Positions 11,877-57,336 of a DNA stretch of 64,000 nucleotides are shown in pieces; the first letter of the stretch is position 1, and each line of letters opens with the position of its first letter. The position numbers were made by a program, and so were the translations under genes. Source of the stretch: Eubacteriales bacterium (GTDB taxonomy: Bacteria > Bacillota > Clostridia > Oscillospirales > CAG-272); NCBI GenBank assembly GCA_051867875.1, contig JBJDZG010000025.1, positions 18,101 through 82,100 of the forward strand. Reading direction: 5' to 3'. Below the pieces are notes generated by a model that did not search any database, had not been told where the DNA came from, and worked only from the letters and a program-made list of their open reading frames with translations.

Positions 11877-11901
11877 GCACCCGCGAAGGCGGGTGCTTTT
11901 T
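11877..11901 (+). terminator. Intrinsic terminator of the opp-like operon
   Basis: GCACCCGC-GAA-GGCGGGTGC followed by TTTTT. Confidence 0.85.
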
Positions 11902-11928
11902 GTGCGTTCATACCGCGCGAATGCGAGG

Positions 11929-12475
11929 CGGACCGTCGAGGAGGTCGCGCCCTACGGGTGTTTTGTTTGTGCTGCGCACAATCATAACGGGGCGTCGAGG
12001 ACGTCGCCCCCTACGGGTGTTGTGTTTGCACCGTGCCCGTTCTGCGTTTTCGCCCGCTTTTGCGACGGCAGGAGCAAGTCCCCGCCCTACGGTTGAGGTG
12101 CGCTCACCGTTCGTGCAAGCGTCGAAAACGGGGCGTCGAGGACGTCGCCCCCTACGGTTGTTGCGCGTGCGCCGTGCCCGTTCTGTGTTTTCGCCCGCCT
12201 TTTGTGAAAAGCGGGCGCGGGCGGTGGGGCGCGTAGCCCCGCCTCGCTCTCCGCAGAGAGCGAAACTCTCGCTCGGCGTTTCTCTTTTGCCGAAGAATGT
12301 GCAAATCACCGTTTTTGCCCGCAAAACGCGGTTGCAAAACCGCGAGGTGAGTTGCTTTGAGATGGGCAAATTGTCTTTATTTATTAGCTTCATTGTGTGC
12401 CCATCGATGTGCCTATGGTATCAAAGAAAAAAGCGGCTAACGAGTTTCGGTATCTTCACGGCTATTGATATCAAA
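11929..12475 (+). repeat. REP/BIME-like cluster A: three forward REP cores (11929-11960 degenerate, 11988-12016, 12130-12156) plus a hairpin-rich module
   Basis: Core is GGGGCGTCGAGGACGTCGCCCC-CTAC(GG). The module holds CGCCCGCCTTTTGTGAAAAGCGGGCG and GGGGC-GCGTA-GCCCC hairpins, as in the copies at 29.6 kb and 59.8 kb. Confidence 0.8.
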
Positions 12476-12524
12476 CAAACCCACTCGCACCCATTTTGTT
12501 GTTTTGCCCTACGTTGATTTTTGA

Positions 12525-12700
12525 TATAACCCGTAGGGGGCGACGTCCTCGACGCCCCGAAAAGCGTGGAGTTCTGACCGCACGAAAAAATTGCGTAGAA
12601 ACATATCAAACGATTAAATGATTTTTACGGCAATTATATTGTTTGCGTTTCAAAACGGACCGTCGAGGACGCCGGTCCCTACGGCTGTTGTGTTTGCACC
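12525..12700 (+). repeat. REPIN/MITE-like doublet, copy 1: two inverted REP cores (12531-12558 and 12657-12684) around a roughly 100-bp AT-richer centre
   Basis: By manual alignment, near-identical (only a handful of mismatches over about 156 bp) to the reverse complement of 52503-52678. Confidence 0.8.
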
Positions 12701-12792
12701 GCACCTATACGATTGTTTTCGCCCGCCTTTTGCGACGGCGGGAGCAAGCCCCCGCCCTACGGTTAAGGTGTGCGCACATCGCACAATCATAA

Positions 12793-12880
12793 CGGGGCGT
12801 CGGGGACGTCGGTCCCTACGGTTGTTGTGCGTGAGCCTGCGCGAACGTAGGGCGGGGCGTCGAGGACGTCGCCCCCTACA
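12793..12880 (+). repeat. Two further forward REP cores (12793-12822, 12847-12880)
   Basis: GGGGCGTCGGGGACGTCGGTCCCTACGG and GTAGGGCGGGGCGTCGAGGACGTCGCCCCCTAC. Confidence 0.75.
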
Positions 12881-17647: not shown

Positions 17648-18322
17648 ATGGTACTTGATAAAAAACAAACTACTTTCGCATACCGCTGTCCTTCATGCGG
17701 AGCGGGCGTTATTTCCGCAGTGGACGTTTTTGCGCTCTCCGCACCTATGATTAAGCTCAAATGCTCCTGCGGTGGAAGTGAAGCGCTTATCGAAAAGCAG
17801 TCCGACGGCAAAATAAGACTTACTGTGCCCTGCCTTATCTGTCCGAAACCGCATACATACCTATTAAGTCCCTCCGTGTTTTTCGGAAAGGACGAGTTTT
17901 TCCTCAACTGTATGTATTCGGATATGAATATCGGTTTCCTCGGAGAGATGGACTACGTCAAGGCAAATCTGGCGAAGAGTGAGCTTGAACTGCTCGACCT
18001 TATGGAAAAATGCGGAATGGACGATTTTTCCGCGATCAGAGAAGCCAACGAGGACGACTCTGACGAGGCACTTGACAGCGAGCTGACGCAGAGCGTGCTT
18101 TTCGTGCTCTCCGAACTTGAAGCAGAGGGCAAGATTTTTTGCAAGTGCAATCACGCTCATGCCGATGGGGACGAAATCGACTCCGAAAAGTACGGCTTTG
18201 AGATTAATTCCGACGGCGTCCGCGTCGTCTGCCGCGACTGCGGAGCGGAGCGCATTATCCCCACCGATAATTCTCTGAATACCCACGCTTTTCTCGACGC
18301 CGATGCGCTGTATCTTGAATAG
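17648..18322 (+). CDS. Hypothetical Cys-rich (zinc-ribbon-like) protein
   Basis: 224 aa with CPSCG...CSCGG...CLICP at the N-terminus and CKC...CRDCG at the C-terminus, and a GGGAG RBS. No family recognised. Confidence 0.5.
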   Translation: MVLDKKQTTFAYRCPSCGAGVISAVDVFALSAPMIKLKCSCGGSEALIEKQSDGKIRLTVPCLICPKPHTYLLSPSVFFGKDEFFLNCMYSDMNIGFLGEMDYVKANLAKSELELLDLMEKCGMDDFSAIREANEDDSDEALDSELTQSVLFVLSELEAEGKIFCKCNHAHADGDEIDSEKYGFEINSDGVRVVCRDCGAERIIPTDNSLNTHAFLDADALYLE

Positions 18323-18366
18323 TCAGCGCAAAAAAGCAGAATATTTTTTGAAAAGCTAACAAAAAG

Positions 18367-18384
18367 CACCCGTACGGGTGTTTT
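18367..18384 (+). terminator. Intrinsic terminator after 17648-18322
   Basis: CACCCGTACGGGTG followed by TTTT. Confidence 0.7.
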
Positions 18385-18405
18385 AGACTGCTGACAAAGT
18401 CAGCG
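18385..18405 (+). repeat. Possible solo 5'-end fragment of the 205-nt element
   Basis: AGACTGCTGACAAAGTCAGCG matches 17402-17422 (AGACCGCTGAGAAAGTCAGGG) at 18/21 positions. Confidence 0.35.
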
Positions 18406-18410
18406 AACCG

Positions 18411-18444
18411 AATCGGGATGCCGAAAAGGCATCCCGATTTTTTT
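18411..18444 (+). terminator. Intrinsic terminator
   Basis: AATCGGGATGCC-GAAAA-GGCATCCCGATT followed by a T-run. Confidence 0.8.
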
Positions 18445-18500
18445 ATATCGGCGGAGTGCCCGCGAAAATGAAAAATTTTGTTCTCGGCGTTGCTTTTTGA

Positions 18501-18509
18501 TGATATAAT
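18501..18509 (+). promoter_or_regulatory. Extended -10 promoter element upstream of the recombinase gene
   Basis: TGaTATAAT, 43 nt upstream of GTG 18552. The -35 is weak. Confidence 0.45.
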
Positions 18510-18551
18510 TCAAAGCAAAGCAATTTATAAATGTAAAAAGGAGGTTATTTT

Positions 18552-19157
18552 GTGAATATATACGGATATATTCGAGTCAGTACAAGAGAACAAAACGAGG
18601 ACAGGCAGTTGATTGCTTTGCGAGAGGTTGGGATTGAGGACAATTTCATTTTTGTGGACAAGCAATCGGGCAAGGATTTCAACCGTCCGAAATACAAGCA
18701 ACTGCTTCGCAAACTGAAAAAAGACGACCTGCTCTACATAAAGAGCATAGACCGTCTCGGGCGAAACTATGAGGAAATTCTGCAACAGTGGCGACTGCTT
18801 ACAAAGGAGAAGGGCGTGGACATCGTGGTGCTGGATATGCCGCTCCTTGACACGCGGTGCGGAAAGGATTTGATGGGAACGTTCCTTTCTGACATCGTTT
18901 TGCAAGTGCTGTCTTTCGTTGCGGAGAACGAGCGTGTCAACATTCGCCAAAGGCAAGCCGAGGGCATTGCGGCGGCGAAAGCGCGGGGCGTAAAATTCGG
19001 AAGGCCGCCCAATTCGCTGCCCGGAAACTTCTGTGAGGTATACGGGCGTTGGAATTCCGGAGAGATTACGGGTACTGCCGCGGCAAAAATGTGCGGTATG
19101 CCGCTTGCGACTTTTCGCTATAAAGCGGACATTTACAAAAGCTCGAAAGCCTTGTAA
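18552..19157 (+). CDS. Small serine recombinase (resolvase/invertase family, Hin/Gin/Pin-like size)
   Basis: 201 aa. The N-terminal YGYIRVSTREQNEDRQ motif carries the catalytic Ser, and the basic C-terminus fits an HTH. GTG start 8 nt after AGGAGG. Confidence 0.9.
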   Translation: MNIYGYIRVSTREQNEDRQLIALREVGIEDNFIFVDKQSGKDFNRPKYKQLLRKLKKDDLLYIKSIDRLGRNYEEILQQWRLLTKEKGVDIVVLDMPLLDTRCGKDLMGTFLSDIVLQVLSFVAENERVNIRQRQAEGIAAAKARGVKFGRPPNSLPGNFCEVYGRWNSGEITGTAAAKMCGMPLATFRYKADIYKSSKAL

Positions 19158-19174
19158 ACAGGCGTTTTTACAAT

Positions 19175-19321
19175 AATGTGTACTTTGTTGTAAGGTACAC
19201 TCACTCCATTTTCTTCGTGTATTATATCACCATTTTTGTAAAAAGTCAATAGTTTGAGGCAAATTTTTCATATAGCGGGATTTTTAGGCTCAAAAAAGGA
19301 ACTTACAAAAAAGTACACAAT
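19175..19321. promoter_or_regulatory. Invertible DNA segment (inverton): IRL 19175-19194, IRR 19302-19321, 107-bp core carrying a promoter
   Basis: The reverse complement of IRL (CTTACAACAAAGTACACATT) matches IRR (CTTACAAAAAAGTACACAAT) at 18/20. The segment lies directly between the recombinase gene and the downstream operon. Confidence 0.75.
19221..19249 (-). promoter_or_regulatory. Near-consensus sigma-A promoter inside the invertible segment, currently facing away from the operon (OFF)
   Basis: On the minus strand: TTGACT (19249-19244), 17-nt spacer, TGaTATAAT (-10 at 19226-19221). Confidence 0.75.
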
Positions 19322-19367
19322 TTCACATTTTTTGTGTATTGTCAAGGCTTATTTGGGAGGTTTCTTT

Positions 19368-20294
19368 GTGACTCTGGCAGAATATTTCCAAACTAATCCG
19401 GAACTTGAAAGAGAGTGGGACAGGGAGGCGAATGCTCAAATTTCTGTTGATACCGTTTCCTACGGCACTCACAAAAAAGCGTCGTGGCGATGCTCTCAAG
19501 GGCACAAATGGGAAGCAAATATCAACAGCCGTGTTTCCTCAAAACGCGGTTGCCCGTACTGCGCGGGCAAGGCGGTGCTTGCCGGATACAATGACCTGAC
19601 GACTGTAAATAAGGAAGTCTTGAAATTCTGGGATTACGAGAAAAACACCGACATTTCTCCCACGGAGGTTGCCGAATTTTCAAAAAAATCAGTTTGGTGG
19701 AAGTGCGAGCTGGGGCACTCCTGGAAGCAAAGCATTCAAGTGATGACCTCATCTGCAACGAAGGGCTCGGGCTGTCCCGTCTGCGATAGCAAAGTGGTGC
19801 TTAAAGGCTTCAACGACCTTGCGTTTTTGCGTCCCGACGTGGCAAAAGAGTGGTGCTACGAGCTTAACCGGCTTAAACCCGACGAGGTTTCGGCAGGAAG
19901 CAAGTCAAAAGCTTGGTGGAAATGTGAGCTGGGGCATACTTGGGAGGCTTACATACATGCAAGAACGGGTGCAGGCGAGAGCAAATGCCCATACTGTGCA
20001 AAAAAAAGGGCGTGGGAAGGCTTTAACGACCTCAAAACCGTCAACCCGCACCTCGCATCGGAGTGGGACGACAAGCTCAACGGCGACCTGAAACCTACGC
20101 AGGTAACGAAAGGCGCGCATAAAAAAGTTTGGTGGAAATGCAGTGCGGGGCACGTTTGGCAAGCATACGTATATGCAAGATCCAAGGAAAACGGCACGGG
20201 CTGTCCCGTCTGCGCGGGCGTTACACGCAAGCCGAAAGATTTCTACCTTGACACGGACAACAGCGCCGTAAGGCGTTTATATAAATCAATCTAA
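19368..20294 (+). CDS. Cytoplasmic protein with four tandem zinc-ribbon repeats (DUF4379-like treble-clef repeats)
   Basis: Four units of about 70 aa, each with W(W)KC..GH.W ... GCP.C ... G.NDL. GTG 19368 lies 7 nt after GGGAGG. The ORF-track TTG start at 19254 would read through IRR. Confidence 0.7.
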   Translation: MTLAEYFQTNPELEREWDREANAQISVDTVSYGTHKKASWRCSQGHKWEANINSRVSSKRGCPYCAGKAVLAGYNDLTTVNKEVLKFWDYEKNTDISPTEVAEFSKKSVWWKCELGHSWKQSIQVMTSSATKGSGCPVCDSKVVLKGFNDLAFLRPDVAKEWCYELNRLKPDEVSAGSKSKAWWKCELGHTWEAYIHARTGAGESKCPYCAKKRAWEGFNDLKTVNPHLASEWDDKLNGDLKPTQVTKGAHKKVWWKCSAGHVWQAYVYARSKENGTGCPVCAGVTRKPKDFYLDTDNSAVRRLYKSI

Positions 20295-20328
20295 TATATC
20301 TCGAAAAAATTACGGAGGAAAATTAGTA

Positions 20329-23300
20329 ATGAAAAACAACAAAAAGAGGGGCTTTACCCTCGTCGAATTGCTGGTTGTAATTGCGATTCTCGCAATTCTC
20401 GCAACAGTAAGCGTAGTTGGATATACCTCTTTCATTGAAAGGGCCGCAGTGTCTAACGACGAAAATGTAGCGACTCAGCTCAATCAGTTTTTGATAGCAC
20501 TCAAAGCTGACTCAAACGGTGAGTTCTACGGACAGGAAATCGACGAGAATAATATTTGGCAGGTAACTCAGTATATTCTCGAAGAAGGCGGACTTGGTGA
20601 GCTTGAGCCTCAGTCAAAACAACACTTCTACTTTGACCTTGATACAGGCAAGTATGTTGTAATGACCGACAGTGCTGCCGGCGTTTCTCTTGCAAAGAAA
20701 TTATTTAATTATTTTGCAAATGCCGCAGAACCCGAGTATAACGCAAGACCCGGTAACTGTTTTACAGAGAATAGACAGTATTTCTATGTAGACACAACCG
20801 GCTCTGATCTTGCTAATGTTATCAGACAGTTCTACACATTCGACAGAGAAAATCCCGATGATACATTTGATTATTCTGAATTCCAGACACTTTGCGCAGG
20901 AAATAAAATTCTCTCGGAACTTAAAACACTCGCTGCCCAGAGCGTATTGGTAACAAAGGACGGAATTTTCTATAATAGAAATTCAAGCATCCTTACAAAT
21001 ATGTTCTTCCACGATGACGAGGGACTTCAGTTGATGGAAACACCTGAAATTACTCTTACTGCTGTTGATGGCAAAGTGGATTCCATCATAGTACCCGAAA
21101 ATGTTGAATTCTTCGGTATTGGTGCATTCAATGTTACAGTTGTAGGTGAAGCAACAAATGCACCCGTTATAATCAATAAAACTGCTGAAGAAATTCAAGA
21201 TAATCTTTCAGAAGATTTTACAAATGTAAACTTCGTTCTTGCTGATGGTGAGGAGTGGAAAACTACAATTCCCGCAAGTGGTGCTAATGCAGGAACTCCT
21301 GTAATTACACCTGTTGAACCCTCTGAACAAGAGTATCCCATCGGTGGCGCAAATCCCATGGTAGAATTCGATATTGCCGTGCCGGATAATTTCAAATCCT
21401 ATACTTCGGTAAAGGAAAATACAAACGGTGTAAACATACTTAATGTTCCTACAATCGTATGGCATACAGGTTCTGTTGATTTGGGACTCTATAAAAACGA
21501 TATCGTTGCACAAAATACTACAAGACCTGTTTCATCTACGAGAGTAACATGGGCTTTGACGGATAGTGATGGAAATCCTGCAACTTATGAGGGTATTTCT
21601 CTTGACAACGGTGTTCTTACACTCTCCAGAGTTGGTGATATGTATCCCACAACATCTGTTATTTATGTAACTGCAACGGCTGTTCGTGGCGATGCGACAA
21701 AGACGTTTGCAATAAATCTTTCCCGCGGTAATAATGCCACAATAACAGTAGACGGCGCTACAGCTACATCGGAAGGTGATACTAATACTATTGACGTTCT
21801 TTGGGGCGAAGATTTGAATGAAACAGAAGGTTTCAAACGCTTATATACTGTTGGTGCAACTCTTACAGGATGGGATAATAAGGTAAGCACAAACTTTAAA
21901 TATGATAGCGATATTAAGATTGTTGTTCCCGCCAGTGAAACGAAGTACAGCGCCGATGGAACAAAACTTGTAACACCTAATACACTTATGGGTGATGAAG
22001 ATGCAAGTATGACATTTACATTTGAGATAATTATCGGCGGTTATTATAAAGAAAAGGTAACAATTACTTTGAATCACGGAGCACATTTCTTCACACAGGT
22101 AAGCTCCGGTCTTAAATACGTCGGAACTGAAGGCTCTACGATCAAATTCAGCGATTTGTTTAAGCAGGTCGATTCATCGGCTACATACGAAAATGTTAAA
22201 CTTAACCTTTATATAGTTCCTCAGGCAGGTCAAGCCCAGACCATTCAGAATTTGGATAACAATTATAAATTGCCAACAAATTCTAATGATGCAAGCACTG
22301 ACGGTGTATTCGCATCTGTTCAGAACATAGGAGCTGACGGCTCAATTGATTTTGACCTTATTAACCCTGCAATACCCGTGAAGATAATTGCCGTTGTAAC
22401 AGTTGACGGTTTGCGTGCTTCCAAAAACTATGAACTTACAGTAGTAGGTGGCACAAATATCAGAGAGTATGAAGAAACCGGTGATACCGGCGACGCACTT
22501 GCTGATATGATTGAAAATGCATATCTTTCGGTTAACCCGGTTTTCCTTAATGATATTACAATGTCCGGCACTGTTAATAAATTTTGTGTCAGTGGTAAGA
22601 CAATCTACGGAAATGGTTTTACTTTCAATGTTAAGAATGGTATAAGAACAGAAGAGGGTATTATTGATATTACGAATACAAGGATTCAGGATTTGAAACT
22701 TGTTGGTAGCGTATATTCTGAATTTGCCGGTTCAGTATCTTATGATTGCGGTTCATCTGTAATCATGGCAAGAGGTAATTCTTATATCTATAACTGTTAT
22801 ATTGCTAACACACGTTCTCCTTTGAGAACAAGTGGTAATACAATAATTGAAGATTGCACTCTCTTCGGCGGTAGATACTCCAATATTGACATAACCGGCG
22901 GTACGGTTACTATCAGAGGAACAGTTACAACCGTTCAGCAGAAGTACTCCAATGACGGTGCTACTAATGTTATCGGCGTTGGTGTTGCTACTTGGTTTAA
23001 CGACAATTATAAGACAGTAAAGGTAGAAACGGGTGCAGAATTCAAGCAGTACAACTTTATGGATTCCACTGTATCAGAGTCTTTACCAGCACTTAAGATG
23101 GAAGCCACAGATAGCATATCATTAGAGCTTATTCAGTTGAAAGACCTCTTTAAGGATTTGTTTACTGATACTTATAAAGATTATCGCTTTACCCTTAATG
23201 GTACGGAGTATGTTAACTCAGGTATGATTTCTCTTGACAAGTATATGTTAAATTATAGCGTAACTATTGCAAAGTCGAATGATTATAAAGGTACTCTTGT

Positions 23301-23862
23301 CAAAAAATATAGATATAACTATACAATTAAACTCACTACAAATGTGTCTGATAGTGATACGTTTACAATCGTGTGCCCATCAGGTACGTATATATATAAC
23401 AACAGTGTCGTTTCTTCCGTTGAAGTAACCGGAGCAGAGTTGAAAGCCGGAGTAGTATTTAAAACAAATGATTATAAGTTGAATTCTCCTGGTGATGCGA
23501 CAAAATTTGATTTCCTGATAGAGAATGATAAGTATAAAACACTTGTTACAAGTGGACTTGCGTCGTATGATAACCTACTTTATAAGCATGACATGGGTGC
23601 GGCATTTGACCTAGCTATCACTGCTGGTGGACTCATAACTGATGTAGCTGGTCTCTTCCACAGTAAAGGTATCCACTACAATCAATTGCTTGTAGACGTG
23701 CATACTCCTACCGATGACAATCAGATTAATGGCGCAGAGTCCATATACTATCAATATTTAAGAGAATATCTTGCGGCTGTTGAACAGAATTTCTTTACAC
23801 CTGAAAATTACGACTTCAATGAGCAGGGCAAATTACCTGTATTTGAATTAGCAGGGGAATAA
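20329..23862 (+). CDS. Giant prepilin-type N-terminal cleavage/methylation domain protein (1177 aa), putative surface/adhesin-like
   Basis: N-terminus KKRGFTLVELLVVIAILAILA is a class III (type IV pilin) signal with G|FTLVE. The C-terminal part has a beta-helix-like repeat character. RBS GGAGG. The gene is AT-rich. Confidence 0.8.
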   Translation: MKNNKKRGFTLVELLVVIAILAILATVSVVGYTSFIERAAVSNDENVATQLNQFLIALKADSNGEFYGQEIDENNIWQVTQYILEEGGLGELEPQSKQHFYFDLDTGKYVVMTDSAAGVSLAKKLFNYFANAAEPEYNARPGNCFTENRQYFYVDTTGSDLANVIRQFYTFDRENPDDTFDYSEFQTLCAGNKILSELKTLAAQSVLVTKDGIFYNRNSSILTNMFFHDDEGLQLMETPEITLTAVDGKVDSIIVPENVEFFGIGAFNVTVVGEATNAPVIINKTAEEIQDNLSEDFTNVNFVLADGEEWKTTIPASGANAGTPVITPVEPSEQEYPIGGANPMVEFDIAVPDNFKSYTSVKENTNGVNILNVPTIVWHTGSVDLGLYKNDIVAQNTTRPVSSTRVTWALTDSDGNPATYEGISLDNGVLTLSRVGDMYPTTSVIYVTATAVRGDATKTFAINLSRGNNATITVDGATATSEGDTNTIDVLWGEDLNETEGFKRLYTVGATLTGWDNKVSTNFKYDSDIKIVVPASETKYSADGTKLVTPNTLMGDEDASMTFTFEIIIGGYYKEKVTITLNHGAHFFTQVSSGLKYVGTEGSTIKFSDLFKQVDSSATYENVKLNLYIVPQAGQAQTIQNLDNNYKLPTNSNDASTDGVFASVQNIGADGSIDFDLINPAIPVKIIAVVTVDGLRASKNYELTVVGGTNIREYEETGDTGDALADMIENAYLSVNPVFLNDITMSGTVNKFCVSGKTIYGNGFTFNVKNGIRTEEGIIDITNTRIQDLKLVGSVYSEFAGSVSYDCGSSVIMARGNSYIYNCYIANTRSPLRTSGNTIIEDCTLFGGRYSNIDITGGTVTIRGTVTTVQQKYSNDGATNVIGVGVATWFNDNYKTVKVETGAEFKQYNFMDSTVSESLPALKMEATDSISLELIQLKDLFKDLFTDTYKDYRFTLNGTEYVNSGMISLDKYMLNYSVTIAKSNDYKGTLVKKYRYNYTIKLTTNVSDSDTFTIVCPSGTYIYNNSVVSSVEVTGAELKAGVVFKTNDYKLNSPGDATKFDFLIENDKYKTLVTSGLASYDNLLYKHDMGAAFDLAITAGGLITDVAGLFHSKGIHYNQLLVDVHTPTDDNQINGAESIYYQYLREYLAAVEQNFFTPENYDFNEQGKLPVFELAGE

Positions 23863-23863
23863 A

Positions 23864-24556
23864 ATGAAATTTCAAAGCATTCATAAAAGAAAAAAACTAA
23901 TCGTACTGATTGTTGTTGGCGTTCTGTTTCTTGCTTGTATCATTGGCGTAATTATTTTCCAACTTGTCTCCGAGGAACGACAGAAACAAGAGGAGCTGGC
24001 GGTTACCTACGGCATAGCAATTGCCAATAAGCCCAATAAAATGGTTTATCTTGTTGGAGAGAGGTTTGAGCCCGAAGGCTTGACAGTTCAACTCATAACA
24101 AATAAAGCGGGAGCAGCGCAGTTTGTTGATTATACTAAACTGACATTTACAGGTTTTGATAGTTCAGTTCCCAATGATTCAGTAGCTGTTACTGTATCTT
24201 ACGGCGAATTTGCTACTATACTTGTGGTGAAAGTTGAAGCCGACCCAACAGCCGATCCCGGTTCAGATTCAAATCCGGAGTCTCAGGAAAGTACCATTGA
24301 AATTCGAGATATGATATTAACATATACTATGAGTAGATGGAATTCTCGCGGTCCCAGCACTTACGGTGCGTACGCCCTGATTACCAAACCCGATGGTACG
24401 GAGTATGGAAGCCTTACGGAAACGGCATTATCAAACGATATGATTCGGAACTATGAAAAAGTTTCTGAACCGTGCGAATACGAATTGATTATTCTCTATA
24501 TTGAAAAAGATGGAACAGAGCATCGCGCAACTGTTACCGTAACGATTACAGAATAA
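23864..24556 (+). CDS. Membrane-anchored protein with a Big_3-like bacterial Ig domain
   Basis: N-terminal TM helix, then KPNKMVYLVGERFEPEGLTVQL...FTGFDSS...VTVSYGEFATILVVKV, typical of Big_3. ATG lies 1 nt after the upstream stop. Confidence 0.7.
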   Translation: MKFQSIHKRKKLIVLIVVGVLFLACIIGVIIFQLVSEERQKQEELAVTYGIAIANKPNKMVYLVGERFEPEGLTVQLITNKAGAAQFVDYTKLTFTGFDSSVPNDSVAVTVSYGEFATILVVKVEADPTADPGSDSNPESQESTIEIRDMILTYTMSRWNSRGPSTYGAYALITKPDGTEYGSLTETALSNDMIRNYEKVSEPCEYELIILYIEKDGTEHRATVTVTITE

Positions 24557-47337: not shown

Positions 47338-47371
47338 TGCCAAGCGAGCTTGCTCTTGAAGACATCACGAT

Positions 47372-47650
47372 ACGGTGAGCAGAAAACAAGGCTCACCGTA
47401 CGGGAATCGAGACGTCGTTTTTTGCTGCGCAAAAAGCCGACACCGAGATTTGCCGGCGCAAACTCGCCCATAATCGCGCTTCGCGCGAATGGGTTCTCTG
47501 CCGAGACGGTGAGCAGAAAGCAAGACTCACCGTACGGGAATCGAGACGTCGTTTTTTGCTGCGCAAAAAGCCGACACCGAGATTTGCTGGCGCAAACTCG
47601 CCCATAATCGCGCTTCGCGCGAATGGGTTCTCTGCCGAAACGGTGAGCAA
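47372..47650. repeat. Tandem repeat, 2.1 units of 134 bp, each unit carrying a copy of the tRNA-Glu 3' end
   Basis: Units at 47372-47505 and 47506-47639, plus a partial third. CCGTACGGGAATCGA occurs at 47396-47410 and 47530-47544, and in tRNA-Glu at 47697-47711. Confidence 0.85.
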
Positions 47651-47689: not shown

Positions 47690-47764
47690 TGGTGACCCGT
47701 ACGGGAATCGAACCCATGTTACAGCCGTGAAAGGGCCGTGTCTTAACCGCTTGACCAACGGGCC
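47690..47764 (-). tRNA. tRNA-Glu (anticodon UUC), CCA encoded
   Basis: Hand-folded cloverleaf: acceptor GGCCCGT/ACGGGTC, anticodon arm CGGCC-CTTTCAC-GGCTG, T arm ATGGG-TTCGATT-CCCGT, then ACCA. Confidence 0.9.
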
Positions 47765-47767
47765 GAA

Positions 47768-47844
47768 TGGTAGCGGGAATTGGACTTGAACCCATGACCT
47801 ATCGGGTATGAACCGATTGCTCTAGCCAACTGAGCTATCCCGCC
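47768..47844 (-). tRNA. tRNA-Met (anticodon CAU, elongator-like; Ile2/lysidine type not excluded), CCA encoded
   Basis: GGCGGGA-TA-GCTC...GAGC, anticodon arm ATCGG-TTCATAC-CCGAT, T loop TTCAAGT, then ACCA. One G-A mismatch in the T stem and a G-U at 1-72 in my fold. Confidence 0.8.
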
Positions 47845-52414: not shown

Positions 52415-52457
52415 TTGTTGCGCGCACGGATATGTGCGAACGCCTCACGCACCTCAC

Positions 52458-52487
52458 CCGTAGGGGGCGACGTCCTCGACGCCCCGC
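52458..52487 (-). repeat. REP core (reverse orientation)
   Basis: CCCGTAGGGGGCGACGTCCTCGACGCCCC. Confidence 0.75.
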
Positions 52488-52502
52488 CTCGCATTCGCAC
52501 GG

Positions 52503-52678
52503 GTGCACGCGCAACAAATGTAGGGACCGGCGTCCCCGACGGTCCGTTTTGAAACGCAAACAACATAATTGCCGTAAAAATCATTTAATTGTTTGATATG
52601 TTTCTAGGCAATTTTCTCGTGCGGTCAGAACTCCACGCTTTTCGGGGCGTCGAAGACGTCGCCCCCTACGGATTATAT
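52503..52678 (-). repeat. REPIN/MITE-like doublet, copy 2 (inverted relative to 12525-12700)
   Basis: Its reverse complement aligns base by base with 12525-12700. REP cores at 52519-52546 and 52644-52672. Confidence 0.8.
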
Positions 52679-57137: not shown

Positions 57138-57175
57138 AAACTGAAAAGCCGTTCGTTTGAACGGCTTTTCAGTTT
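57138..57175 (+). terminator. Intrinsic terminator
   Basis: AAACTGAAAAGCCGTTC-GTTT-GAACGGCTTTTCAGTTT. Confidence 0.85.
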
Positions 57176-57188
57176 ATTAATAAAAAGG

Positions 57189-57336
57189 ACATTTGAAAAA
57201 ACGAATAAATTACTGTTGGTGGAGGTTCACATGCCCGAAAGAATTGAAAGGGCAGAGGTTGCACCGAAAAGATTTAGGAGAGAAAGGAAAAAGTTAATTA
57301 AATCAGCTCGGGTGTAATATTCGTTTTTTCAAATGT
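57189..57336. repeat. Inverted repeat of about 24 bp (57189-57213 / 57314-57336) enclosing about 100 bp
   Basis: ACATTTGAAAAAACGAATA (57189-57207) is the perfect reverse complement of TATTCGTTTTTTCAAATGT (57318-57336). Pairing extends to ..TTAC/GTAA. Confidence 0.8.
57231..57317 (+). CDS. Speculative 28-aa basic small ORF inside the inverted repeat
   Basis: MPERIERAEVAPKRFRRERKKLIKSARV. GGAGG lies 5 nt upstream of the ATG. No homology evidence. Confidence 0.2.
   Translation: MPERIERAEVAPKRFRRERKKLIKSARV

Follow-up and report, generated by a model that had tools for sequence, protein, structure and literature searches.

The 64,000-nucleotide (nt) stretch of Eubacteriales DNA analyzed here, referred to throughout as the window, contains the gene for a 201-residue serine recombinase, a pair of short inverted repeats that enclose a promoter, and a three-gene operon downstream (Table 1). 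We assign a probability of roughly 85% to the interpretation that this locus is a DNA-inversion ON/OFF phase-variation switch, assembled in the OFF orientation. An initial annotation of the sequence had proposed a phase-variation architecture, and the proposal is borne out by the same layout in dozens of genomes, in both orientations, and by exact inversions in close relatives. Switches of this kind are well known, and this one belongs to a widespread and apparently undescribed cassette family.

The repeat arms (19177-19194 and 19302-19319) match at 17 of 18 positions and lie 107 nt apart; taken over 19175-19194 and 19302-19321 they match at 18 of 20, as the initial annotation had reported. 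With up to three mismatches allowed, the repeat 18-mer is found only at these two sites in 64 kb, against a chance expectation of 0.13, and a two-match outcome arises in none of 100 shuffles. Inverted 18-nt pairs with at most one mismatch and a separation of 60-200 nt occur at three places in the window and in none of 20 Markov resamples. The left inverted repeat (IRL) lies 17 nt from the recombinase stop codon. The DNA between the arms (19195-19301), which falls inside the segment predicted to invert (19182-19314), has a GC content of 32%, compared with 47% for the window.

Scanning 18300-20400 identifies a single sigma-70-like promoter, which is on the minus strand and matches the consensus at 11 of 12 positions, with a TG extension. 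Its elements, TTGACT (19249-19244) and TATAAT (19226-19221) separated by a 17-nt spacer, are those of the leftward-facing promoter given in the initial annotation. There are three occurrences of TTGACN-17-TGNTATAAT in the whole window (0.01 expected) and eight of the -35 context TTGACTTTTT (0.44 expected). The latter is an enriched host motif, and the rbr, mrnC and lacI sites originally cited as sharing it are among its occurrences. The same scan returns no plus-strand promoter-like site at threshold in 18300-20400 and hence none for the downstream co-directional gene, in line with the earlier statement that no other credible plus-strand -35/-10 pair precedes the operon. The promoter assigned to the recombinase gene (18481-18509) scores below this threshold and was read from sequence and conservation. 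When the segment is flipped in silico, the invertible promoter moves to 19247-19275 and faces right, with a leader of ~86 nt to the GTG at 19368, where ~85 nt had been anticipated. The GGGAGG ribosome-binding site (RBS) and GTG start named in the initial annotation are both present, and the same start was called independently in a second assembly of the locus (L001). Rfam yields nothing credible in 18300-20500 and only two tRNAs in the whole window.

The evidence on switching is comparative across assemblies, and two of these, the window and L001, cover this locus. L001 is the one other contig returned by exact-protein look-ups with the recombinase and the DUF4379 protein encoded downstream; it is identical and OFF. 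A degenerate pattern of the interior found nothing among JGI metagenome contigs; the interior is absent from that collection.

Exact between-sample inversions with identical flanks are seen in three relatives whose recombinases are 81-90% identical to that of the window. At the P0004 locus (recombinase 90% identical), the L082 interior is the exact inverse of that in L083, L085 and L086, the flanks are identical, and the L084 contig stops inside the left repeat. The P0083 locus is represented by ten contigs from different metagenomes (L101-L110), four of them ON and six OFF; its cargo, a Dcm-type cytosine methylase and an NgoFVII-type restriction endonuclease, probably makes it a phase-variable restriction-modification (R-M) system. 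Both states are also present at the P0023 locus. Here six contigs from different samples (L112, L115, L117-L120) end at the same base, ...CGTGTACT, which lies 28 nt after the recombinase stop and is the last base common to both states, that is, the branch point. Contig breaks of this type could serve as a cheap assembly-level signature of active invertons. At the P0007 locus, all eight contigs are OFF though the repeats are perfect. Further inversions are apparent in two other pairs. L017 (a Lachnospiraceae metagenome-assembled genome) and L021 (Merdimonas faecis BR31) are orthologous, with flanks 96-98% identical, and the identity of their interiors is 27% when both are read in the same orientation and 88% when one is reverse-complemented. 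The paralogous switches L007 and L010 of one Flavonifractor genome have identical repeats and different cargo, and their interiors reach 94% identity once one of them is reverse-complemented. Because the repeats (18-26 nt) are shorter than the final assembly k-mers, which were deduced from contig names such as k141, the inverted forms cannot be assembler artefacts.

At least 583 stretches in GTDB representative genomes encode a relative of the recombinase. The best 80, with recombinases 71-89% identical, were analyzed; they come from Oscillospiraceae, Lachnospiraceae, other Clostridia, Megasphaera and Selenomonas. Approximately 45-55 of these 80 loci, depending on the criterion, carry a repeat with a GTGTAC core 10-26 nt after the recombinase stop and its inverse ~90-130 nt further on. 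The family layout is an interior of ~110 bp with an outward-facing extended -10 promoter between the repeats. Interiors that were oriented by their best promoter before alignment feature an A/T-rich stretch, TTGAAA, TGGAAA or TTGACT, a gap of 17 nt and TGnTATAAT, and end ~35 nt before the repeat. The promoter faces away from the cargo, toward the recombinase, at 31 loci and toward the cargo at 14, with four unclear, the loci counted being phylogenetically related. In 34 of 37 loci the first substantial downstream gene runs in the same direction as the recombinase gene, 100-800 nt from the stop codon of the latter; in the other three (e.g., L082 and L111) it is on the opposite strand. Seven genome contigs break off no more than 200 nt past this stop codon, as expected if assemblies break at a segment of mixed orientation.

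The cargo is varied across the family and includes giant surface proteins, large secreted proteins, zinc-ribbon membrane proteins, R-M and defence-like genes, glycosyltransferases, and cohesin/dockerin/MACPF proteins. In Ruminococcus turbiniformis, a gene ~1.2 kb downstream of a cassette with its promoter OFF (L003:6789-7526) encodes a protein whose N-terminus we take to resemble ErmB, a 23S rRNA methylase. Relatives are also borne by phages (209 in IMG/VR), and only ~4 of the best 80 of these (at most 81% identical) have an inverton. The phage relatives, at lower identity, mostly lack the switch, and the architecture is specific to a subclade.

The imperfect repeats of P0023 and P0083 locate the crossover. 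Mismatches inside the core move with the interior and those outside it stay, which confines strand exchange to TGTACT, and a 26-bp dyad surrounds this interval. A profile built from 176 half-sites of 44 loci reads TTACAAAAAAGT from the outer end to the core, on both sides of a GT dinucleotide. In the window, the half-sites of the left site match each other at 10 of 12 positions and score 14.6 and 14.2 bits against the profile; the right site has a strong inner half-site (18.7 bits) and a weak outer one (6.4 bits). All of these scores fall inside the range of the family. The outer half-site of the right inverted repeat (IRR) is the weakest of the four across the family, with a median of 10.8 bits versus ~15. 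In L082 it reaches only 0.4 bits, yet L082 inverts, so the 6.4 bits in the window are no reason to call the switch locked. Serine invertases such as Hin and Gin need an asymmetric core in inverted orientation for inversion rather than deletion. The window sites have the Hin/Gin-type layout of 26 bp, with two 12-bp half-sites and an asymmetric 2-bp core, and knowledge of these enzymes, together with the relatives, suggests that cleavage would occur at the 2-bp cores.

The initial annotation had proposed a different dyad, GTGTAC-11-GTACAC (19178-19200), as the site bound by the recombinase. Although present in the window, that dyad is otherwise found in the closest relatives only and is carried along when the interior moves, and we replace it with the conserved 26-bp dyad at 19168-19193, centered on the GT core. 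The extra GTACAC (19195-19200) lies just inside one end of the segment, and GTACAC- or ATACAC-like motifs occur in L082, L087 and L101. The motif is present only in the closest relatives, always on the promoter-downstream side, and with the repeat core it makes a 6-bp stem in the DNA and in the predicted 5' leader.

The distance between the two cores falls into classes. Among 40 loci it clusters at 113-115, 126-128, 134-138 and 145-148 bp, in steps of about one helical turn, and the window, at 135 bp, falls into the main spacing class. For periods of 10.5-11 bp, the mean resultant length is 0.72-0.75 and the nominal Rayleigh p is ~1e-10, a value inflated by the relatedness of the loci, though the spacing classes still contain diverged sequences. 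Such classes argue for a geometry in which the sites have to be opposite one another on a very small loop. A loop this tight and helically phased (~114, 127, 136 and 147 bp) would be unusual for a Sin-like enzyme, and would be expected to require intrinsic bending of the A/T-rich interior or an HU-type protein.

We propose that the recombinase would bind as dimers to the two inverted 26-bp sites, with cores GT (19180-81) and AC (19315-16) 135 bp apart, and that the sites would synapse across the very small A/T-rich loop. Cutting at the 2-bp cores, rotation and rejoining of the strands would then invert ~133 bp (19182-19314). In the assembled OFF state, the one strong extended -10 promoter of the segment would fire leftward, antisense into the recombinase gene, leaving the DUF4379/prepilin-like/Big_3 operon without a promoter of its own; in the ON state, it would transcribe the operon rightward from 19247-19275, through the ~86-nt leader to GTG 19368. 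This copy presumably flips, by means of its own recombinase. The cassette may also carry a built-in, orientation-dependent feedback, through the OFF-state promoter running antisense through the recombinase gene. Convergent transcription could damp recombinase expression, slow OFF-to-ON switching and bias populations toward OFF, and such damping would fit the 2:1 OFF excess of assemblies and the eight of eight OFF contigs at P0007.

The recombinase itself is intact. The 201-residue product of 18552-19157 matches PF00239 over residues 3-147 (1.8e-31). The catalytic set is complete (Y6, R8, S10, Q14, D36, D67, R68 and R71); residue numbering is the same as in gamma-delta resolvase, and the catalytic residues align with those of both Sin and gamma-delta resolvase. 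The closest solved relative is Sin/Bin3 (2r0q, 1.1e-29), followed by gamma-delta and Tn3 resolvases (~1e-20) and then Gin-type invertases (4m6f and 3uj3, ~5e-17). Foldseek with the recombinase model gives the same order as the sequence search, with full-length alignments to Sin and gamma-delta resolvase. Sin/Bin3 and the resolvases thus rank above the Hin- and Gin-type invertases, and by sequence the protein belongs with Sin, Bin3 and beta-like resolvases. The NCBIfam model for Mpi (NF009949) gives 49.3 bits, below its equivalog cut-off of 272. No Pfam helix-turn-helix family matches residues 146-201, where the AlphaFold model places three helices (160-200). The model has an overall predicted local distance difference test (pLDDT) score of 64, which is low because the alignment is shallow (80-90% identity), and it is relied on for the C-terminal helices only, pLDDT being 88-92 over residues 160-180. 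A protein search gives thousands of close homologues.

Several points weigh against a functional switch. Neither of the two assemblies of the exact locus shows the ON form. The promoter calls are consensus matches, not mapped transcription start sites. The outer IRR half-site (ATGTGAAATTGT versus the consensus TTACAAAAAAGT, 6.4 bits) ranks at the 11th percentile among family members. The mechanism presupposes a host bending factor such as HU. Both the orientation counts and the Rayleigh p overstate independence, the loci being phylogenetically related. Finally, a terminator scan found none between the recombinase gene and the cargo, so the OFF state may leak by read-through from the recombinase promoter and may not be fully off.

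Some of these points also favor the strongest alternative, namely a fossil, in which the cassette is of the invertible type and this copy no longer flips, the operon being silent or transcribed by read-through only. Both assemblies are OFF, the outer IRR half-site is degenerate (6.4 bits, 11th percentile), and the two repeats differ at 19187. We nevertheless consider a fossil unlikely. L082 inverts with an outer half-site that is weaker still (0.4 bits), and the recombinase is full length, with all catalytic residues present and 119 invariant columns in an alignment against 21 homologues. Moreover, OFF is the commoner state in the family (31 versus 14), and all eight P0007 contigs are OFF despite perfect repeats. 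For much the same reasons, the initial description of the promoter as apparently locked OFF is not supported: the enzyme is complete, the repeats match at 17 of 18 positions, and a relative with a poorer half-site inverts.

The recombinase and its sites belong to a larger unit. Positions 18413-19318 align as a single block, with 78-79% identity, to L002, L082 and L087, which represent three unrelated genomic contexts, and homology stops at IRR. These contexts include a position upstream of a 902-residue protein and a cohesin/dockerin/MACPF protein, and a position inside an element that also encodes a large serine recombinase and a relaxase. At its left end the block has a terminator hairpin and the recombinase promoter with TGATATAAT. 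The hairpin is kept through compensatory changes (GGGATGCC/GGCATCCC in the window versus GGGAGGTC/GACCTCCC in the relatives), and it probably insulates the cassette from upstream transcription; the recombinase promoter TTTTGATGATATAAT is conserved in L087, L082 and L002. The initial annotation did not recognize this combination of recombinase, site and cargo, yet the recombinase and site form a widespread 0.9-kb cassette rather than a rare one. A phmmer search with the three cargo proteins against all open reading frames (ORFs) of the 80 genome loci gave no matches outside L001, which indicates that the cargo is not part of the module; the pairing with this cargo alone is particular to this lineage. 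We see about an even chance that the 0.9-kb unit is a self-contained, horizontally mobile phase-variation cassette that has spread through Clostridia into Negativicutes, makes downstream operons phase-variable wherever it lands, and here replaced a fixed consensus promoter. No description of this cassette family was found in the literature searched; individual members may figure in bulk inverton catalogues.

The operon downstream had been described as encoding surface proteins. The description is plausible for genes 2 and 3, judging from the prepilin-type motif of one product and the transmembrane (TM) segment and Big_3 domain of the other; it does not extend to gene 1, a DUF4379 protein in which no export signal was detected. 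No Pfam or PADLOC domain was found in the 1150-residue body of the gene 2 product, which has 188 homologues at E<=1e-10, some of them named 'type II secretion system protein' in their sources. A defence role was considered and rejected, as PADLOC gave no matches for the recombinase and the three cargo proteins.

The trio of DUF4379 protein, a 1000-1500-residue protein with a prepilin-type N-terminus, and TM/Big_3 protein is a recurrent operon in Clostridia (the window, L095 and L096-L099). In L096-L098 (pilin-like protein 50% identical) the order is DUF4379, pilin-like and Big_3, and the DUF4379 gene adjoins the pilin-like gene; L095 (89% identical) has the pilin-like and Big_3 genes. The Big_3 gene is always 3' of the pilin-like gene in these relatives. 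Neither L095 nor L096-L098 has the cassette. Instead, a fixed 12/12 TTGACA-17-TGnTATAAT promoter stands upstream of the operon in these relatives, so that in the lineage of the window the cassette is found where an ordinary promoter would be. This comparison of sequences is the best local argument that the invertible promoter drives the operon. In L095 (3692-4000), which holds the closest relative of the cargo operon, a GC-rich leader of ~280 nt separates the perfect consensus promoter from the pilin-like gene; the leader has no Rfam family match.

A second alternative is that the sites serve resolution or movement of the cassette, that the internal promoter mainly exerts antisense control over the recombinase, and that the cargo is incidental. 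The recombinase indeed has its nearest counterparts among the resolvases (Sin, Bin3 and gamma-delta) rather than in Hin or Gin. The cassette is evidently mobile, and three of 37 loci (L082 and L111 among them) have the downstream gene on the opposite strand. However, the sites are inverted rather than direct, and the observed products are inversions. A co-directional gene follows within 100-800 nt of the recombinase stop in 34 of the 37 loci, and the fixed strong promoter at the same place in cassette-less orthologous operons implies that the cassette supplies the operon's promoter. We therefore judge this explanation very improbable. A chance co-occurrence of inverted repeat and promoter in intergenic DNA can practically be dismissed: the interior is AT-rich (32% GC) and such DNA is more prone to promoter- and repeat-like matches, but the control expectations are 0.13, 0.01 and 0, and the arrangement recurs at the same stop-codon offset in dozens of diverged loci.

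The inversion switch proposed here resembles several known systems without coinciding with any of them. In the Hin/hix flagellar switch of Salmonella, inversion turns a promoter toward or away from an operon. Hin and its counterparts Gin, Cin and Pin likewise involve a small serine recombinase, two inverted 26-bp sites with imperfect 12-bp half-sites, and, at hix, a promoter that is moved. Here, by contrast, the recombinase gene lies outside the invertible segment, which measures ~135 bp core to core rather than ~1 kb, and the enzyme is closer to Sin/Bin3 and the resolvases (1e-29) than to the Gin type (5e-17). Inversion by enzymes of the Hin type depends on a recombinational enhancer bound by Fis. 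No Fis-dependent enhancer is evident here, though no search aimed at enhancers was made; Firmicutes generally lack Fis. Mpi and the capsule promoters of Bacteroides fragilis provide another parallel, in that a serine recombinase flips short promoter segments controlling surface structures and several switches per genome share their repeats, as do L007 and L010. Mpi, however, acts in trans on many distant promoters, whereas each switch here has its own recombinase gene; promoter type and repeat motif also differ, and the window recombinase is far from the Mpi cut-off (49 versus 272 bits).

The closest relatives in sequence and structure, Sin of Staphylococcus and the beta recombinase of pSM19035, come from Gram-positive hosts. 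Beta recombinase can carry out both resolution and inversion and depends on a bending protein of the HU type, a requirement that would suit a 135-bp loop. In nature these enzymes resolve plasmids or transposons at res sites that include accessory subsites, whereas only inverted sites are seen here, and neither is known to switch promoters. In the fimS element of E. coli, orientation-dependent control of FimE is established. That system shares the invertible promoter and, possibly, orientation-dependent control of the recombinase; it differs in its tyrosine recombinases (FimB and FimE), its 314-bp length, and its cofactors IHF and Lrp.

Short intergenic invertons that control surface and motility genes are also known from gut Clostridia, in the form of the RecV-dependent switches of C. 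difficile (flgB and cwpV) and group 139. These involve tyrosine recombinases and interiors of ~150-230 bp, as against a serine recombinase and a shorter interior here. Group 139 invertons of the hCom2 community were detected from mixed read orientation and linked to tyrosine-type recombinases (PMC11892184). Identity with this group was rejected on account of these recombinases and of interiors of ~206-228 bp, and the portions of the supplements available to us contain no matching repeat. In the RADS study, small serine recombinases of the EF_B0058 type were used as bait for defence genes; their role was left open, with inversion as one possibility (PMC13552941). EF_B0058 resembles the present system as a 201-residue serine recombinase directly upstream of, and co-directional with, a variable and often defence-related cargo, and several cargoes of the present family are R-M or defence-like. 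The two are not the same, as they are 35% identical, and only 54 nt separate EF_B0058 from its cargo, too few to accommodate an invertible segment; its locus has no inverton.

If the switch is real, probably only some of the cells in a population express the prepilin-like/Big_3/DUF4379 operon, which bears on the interpretation of expression data and surface phenotypes. Beyond this genome, a single, highly conserved cassette of recombinase and switch appears to govern cargo of very different kinds in many gut Clostridia. Its sequence would be a simple signature by which to predict phase-variable genes in Firmicutes, a group under-represented in catalogues of invertons. The cassette could also explain why small serine recombinases are found beside defence genes, giving a concrete answer for the present subfamily, as with the R-M system of P0083. 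Finally, a compact serine-recombinase switch with a loop of ~135 bp could be of use in mechanistic or synthetic-biology work.

Table 1. Features of the switch cassette and the downstream operon (positions in the window)
Feature	Position	Strand	Basis or detail
Whole cassette: terminator, recombinase promoter, recombinase gene, IRL, invertible promoter, IRR	18413-19318	+	One homology block
Terminator-like hairpin, left cassette edge	18410-18440	+	13-bp stem, then T run
Likely recombinase-gene promoter	18481-18509	+	Extended -10 TGaTATAAT 18501-18509, weak -35 TTCTCG
Small serine recombinase, 201 aa	18552-19157	+	PF00239 1.8e-31
Left recombination site TTACAATAATGT-GT-ACTTTGTTGTAA	19168-19193	+	Two 12-bp half-sites, core GT 19180-19181
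IRL as given in the initial annotation	19175-19194	+	Inverted-repeat match
Segment predicted to invert, core to core	19182-19314		Crossover mapping in relatives and in-silico flip
Invertible promoter TTGACT-17-TGaTATAAT	19221-19249	-	Consensus scan; position and form as in aligned family interiors
IRR as given in the initial annotation	19302-19321	+	Inverted-repeat match
Right recombination site TTACAAAAAAGT-AC-ACAATTTCACAT	19303-19328	+	Core AC 19315-19316
Predicted ON junctions: left TGTGTACTTTTTTGTAAGTTCCTTTT, right GAGTGAGTGTACCTTACAACAAAGTACACAAT			Flipped segment
RBS GGGAGG of first cargo gene	19355-19360	+	Sequence
Cargo gene 1, 308 aa, four DUF4379 treble-clef zinc fingers	19368-20294	+	PF14311 1.7e-72, 4 stretches
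Cargo gene 2, 1177 aa, prepilin-type N-terminal cleavage/methylation motif	20329-23862	+	PF07963 1.4e-9, TIGR02532
Cargo gene 3, 230 aa, N-terminal hydrophobic segment and Big_3 domain	23864-24556	+	PF07523 9e-7

Other repeats were observed elsewhere in the window. At 57190-57336, inverted repeats (ACATTTGAAAAAACGAATA..TTAC and GTAATATTCGTTTTTTCAAATGT) with arms of ~22-24 nt (18/18 core) lie ~100 nt apart, between convergent gene 3' ends and just past a terminator at ~57142-57170. The segment has no obvious promoter, recombinase or Rfam match; it may be a second invertible segment or else a small mobile element. Clusters of a GC-rich palindrome of ~27-31 nt, CGGGGCGTCGAGGACGTCGCCCCCTACGG, occur in both orientations, in 76-77-nt repeat units, at 11889-12879, 52456-52670 and ~29.3-29.8 kb. 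They look like intergenic repeats of the repetitive extragenic palindromic (REP) or miniature inverted-repeat transposable element (MITE) type and give rise to spurious ORFs rich in 'GRRGRRPL'. A tandem repeat with a unit of 134 nt, present in 2.1 copies with 96% matches, is found directly beside the two tRNA genes (47368-47649 and 47693-47844).

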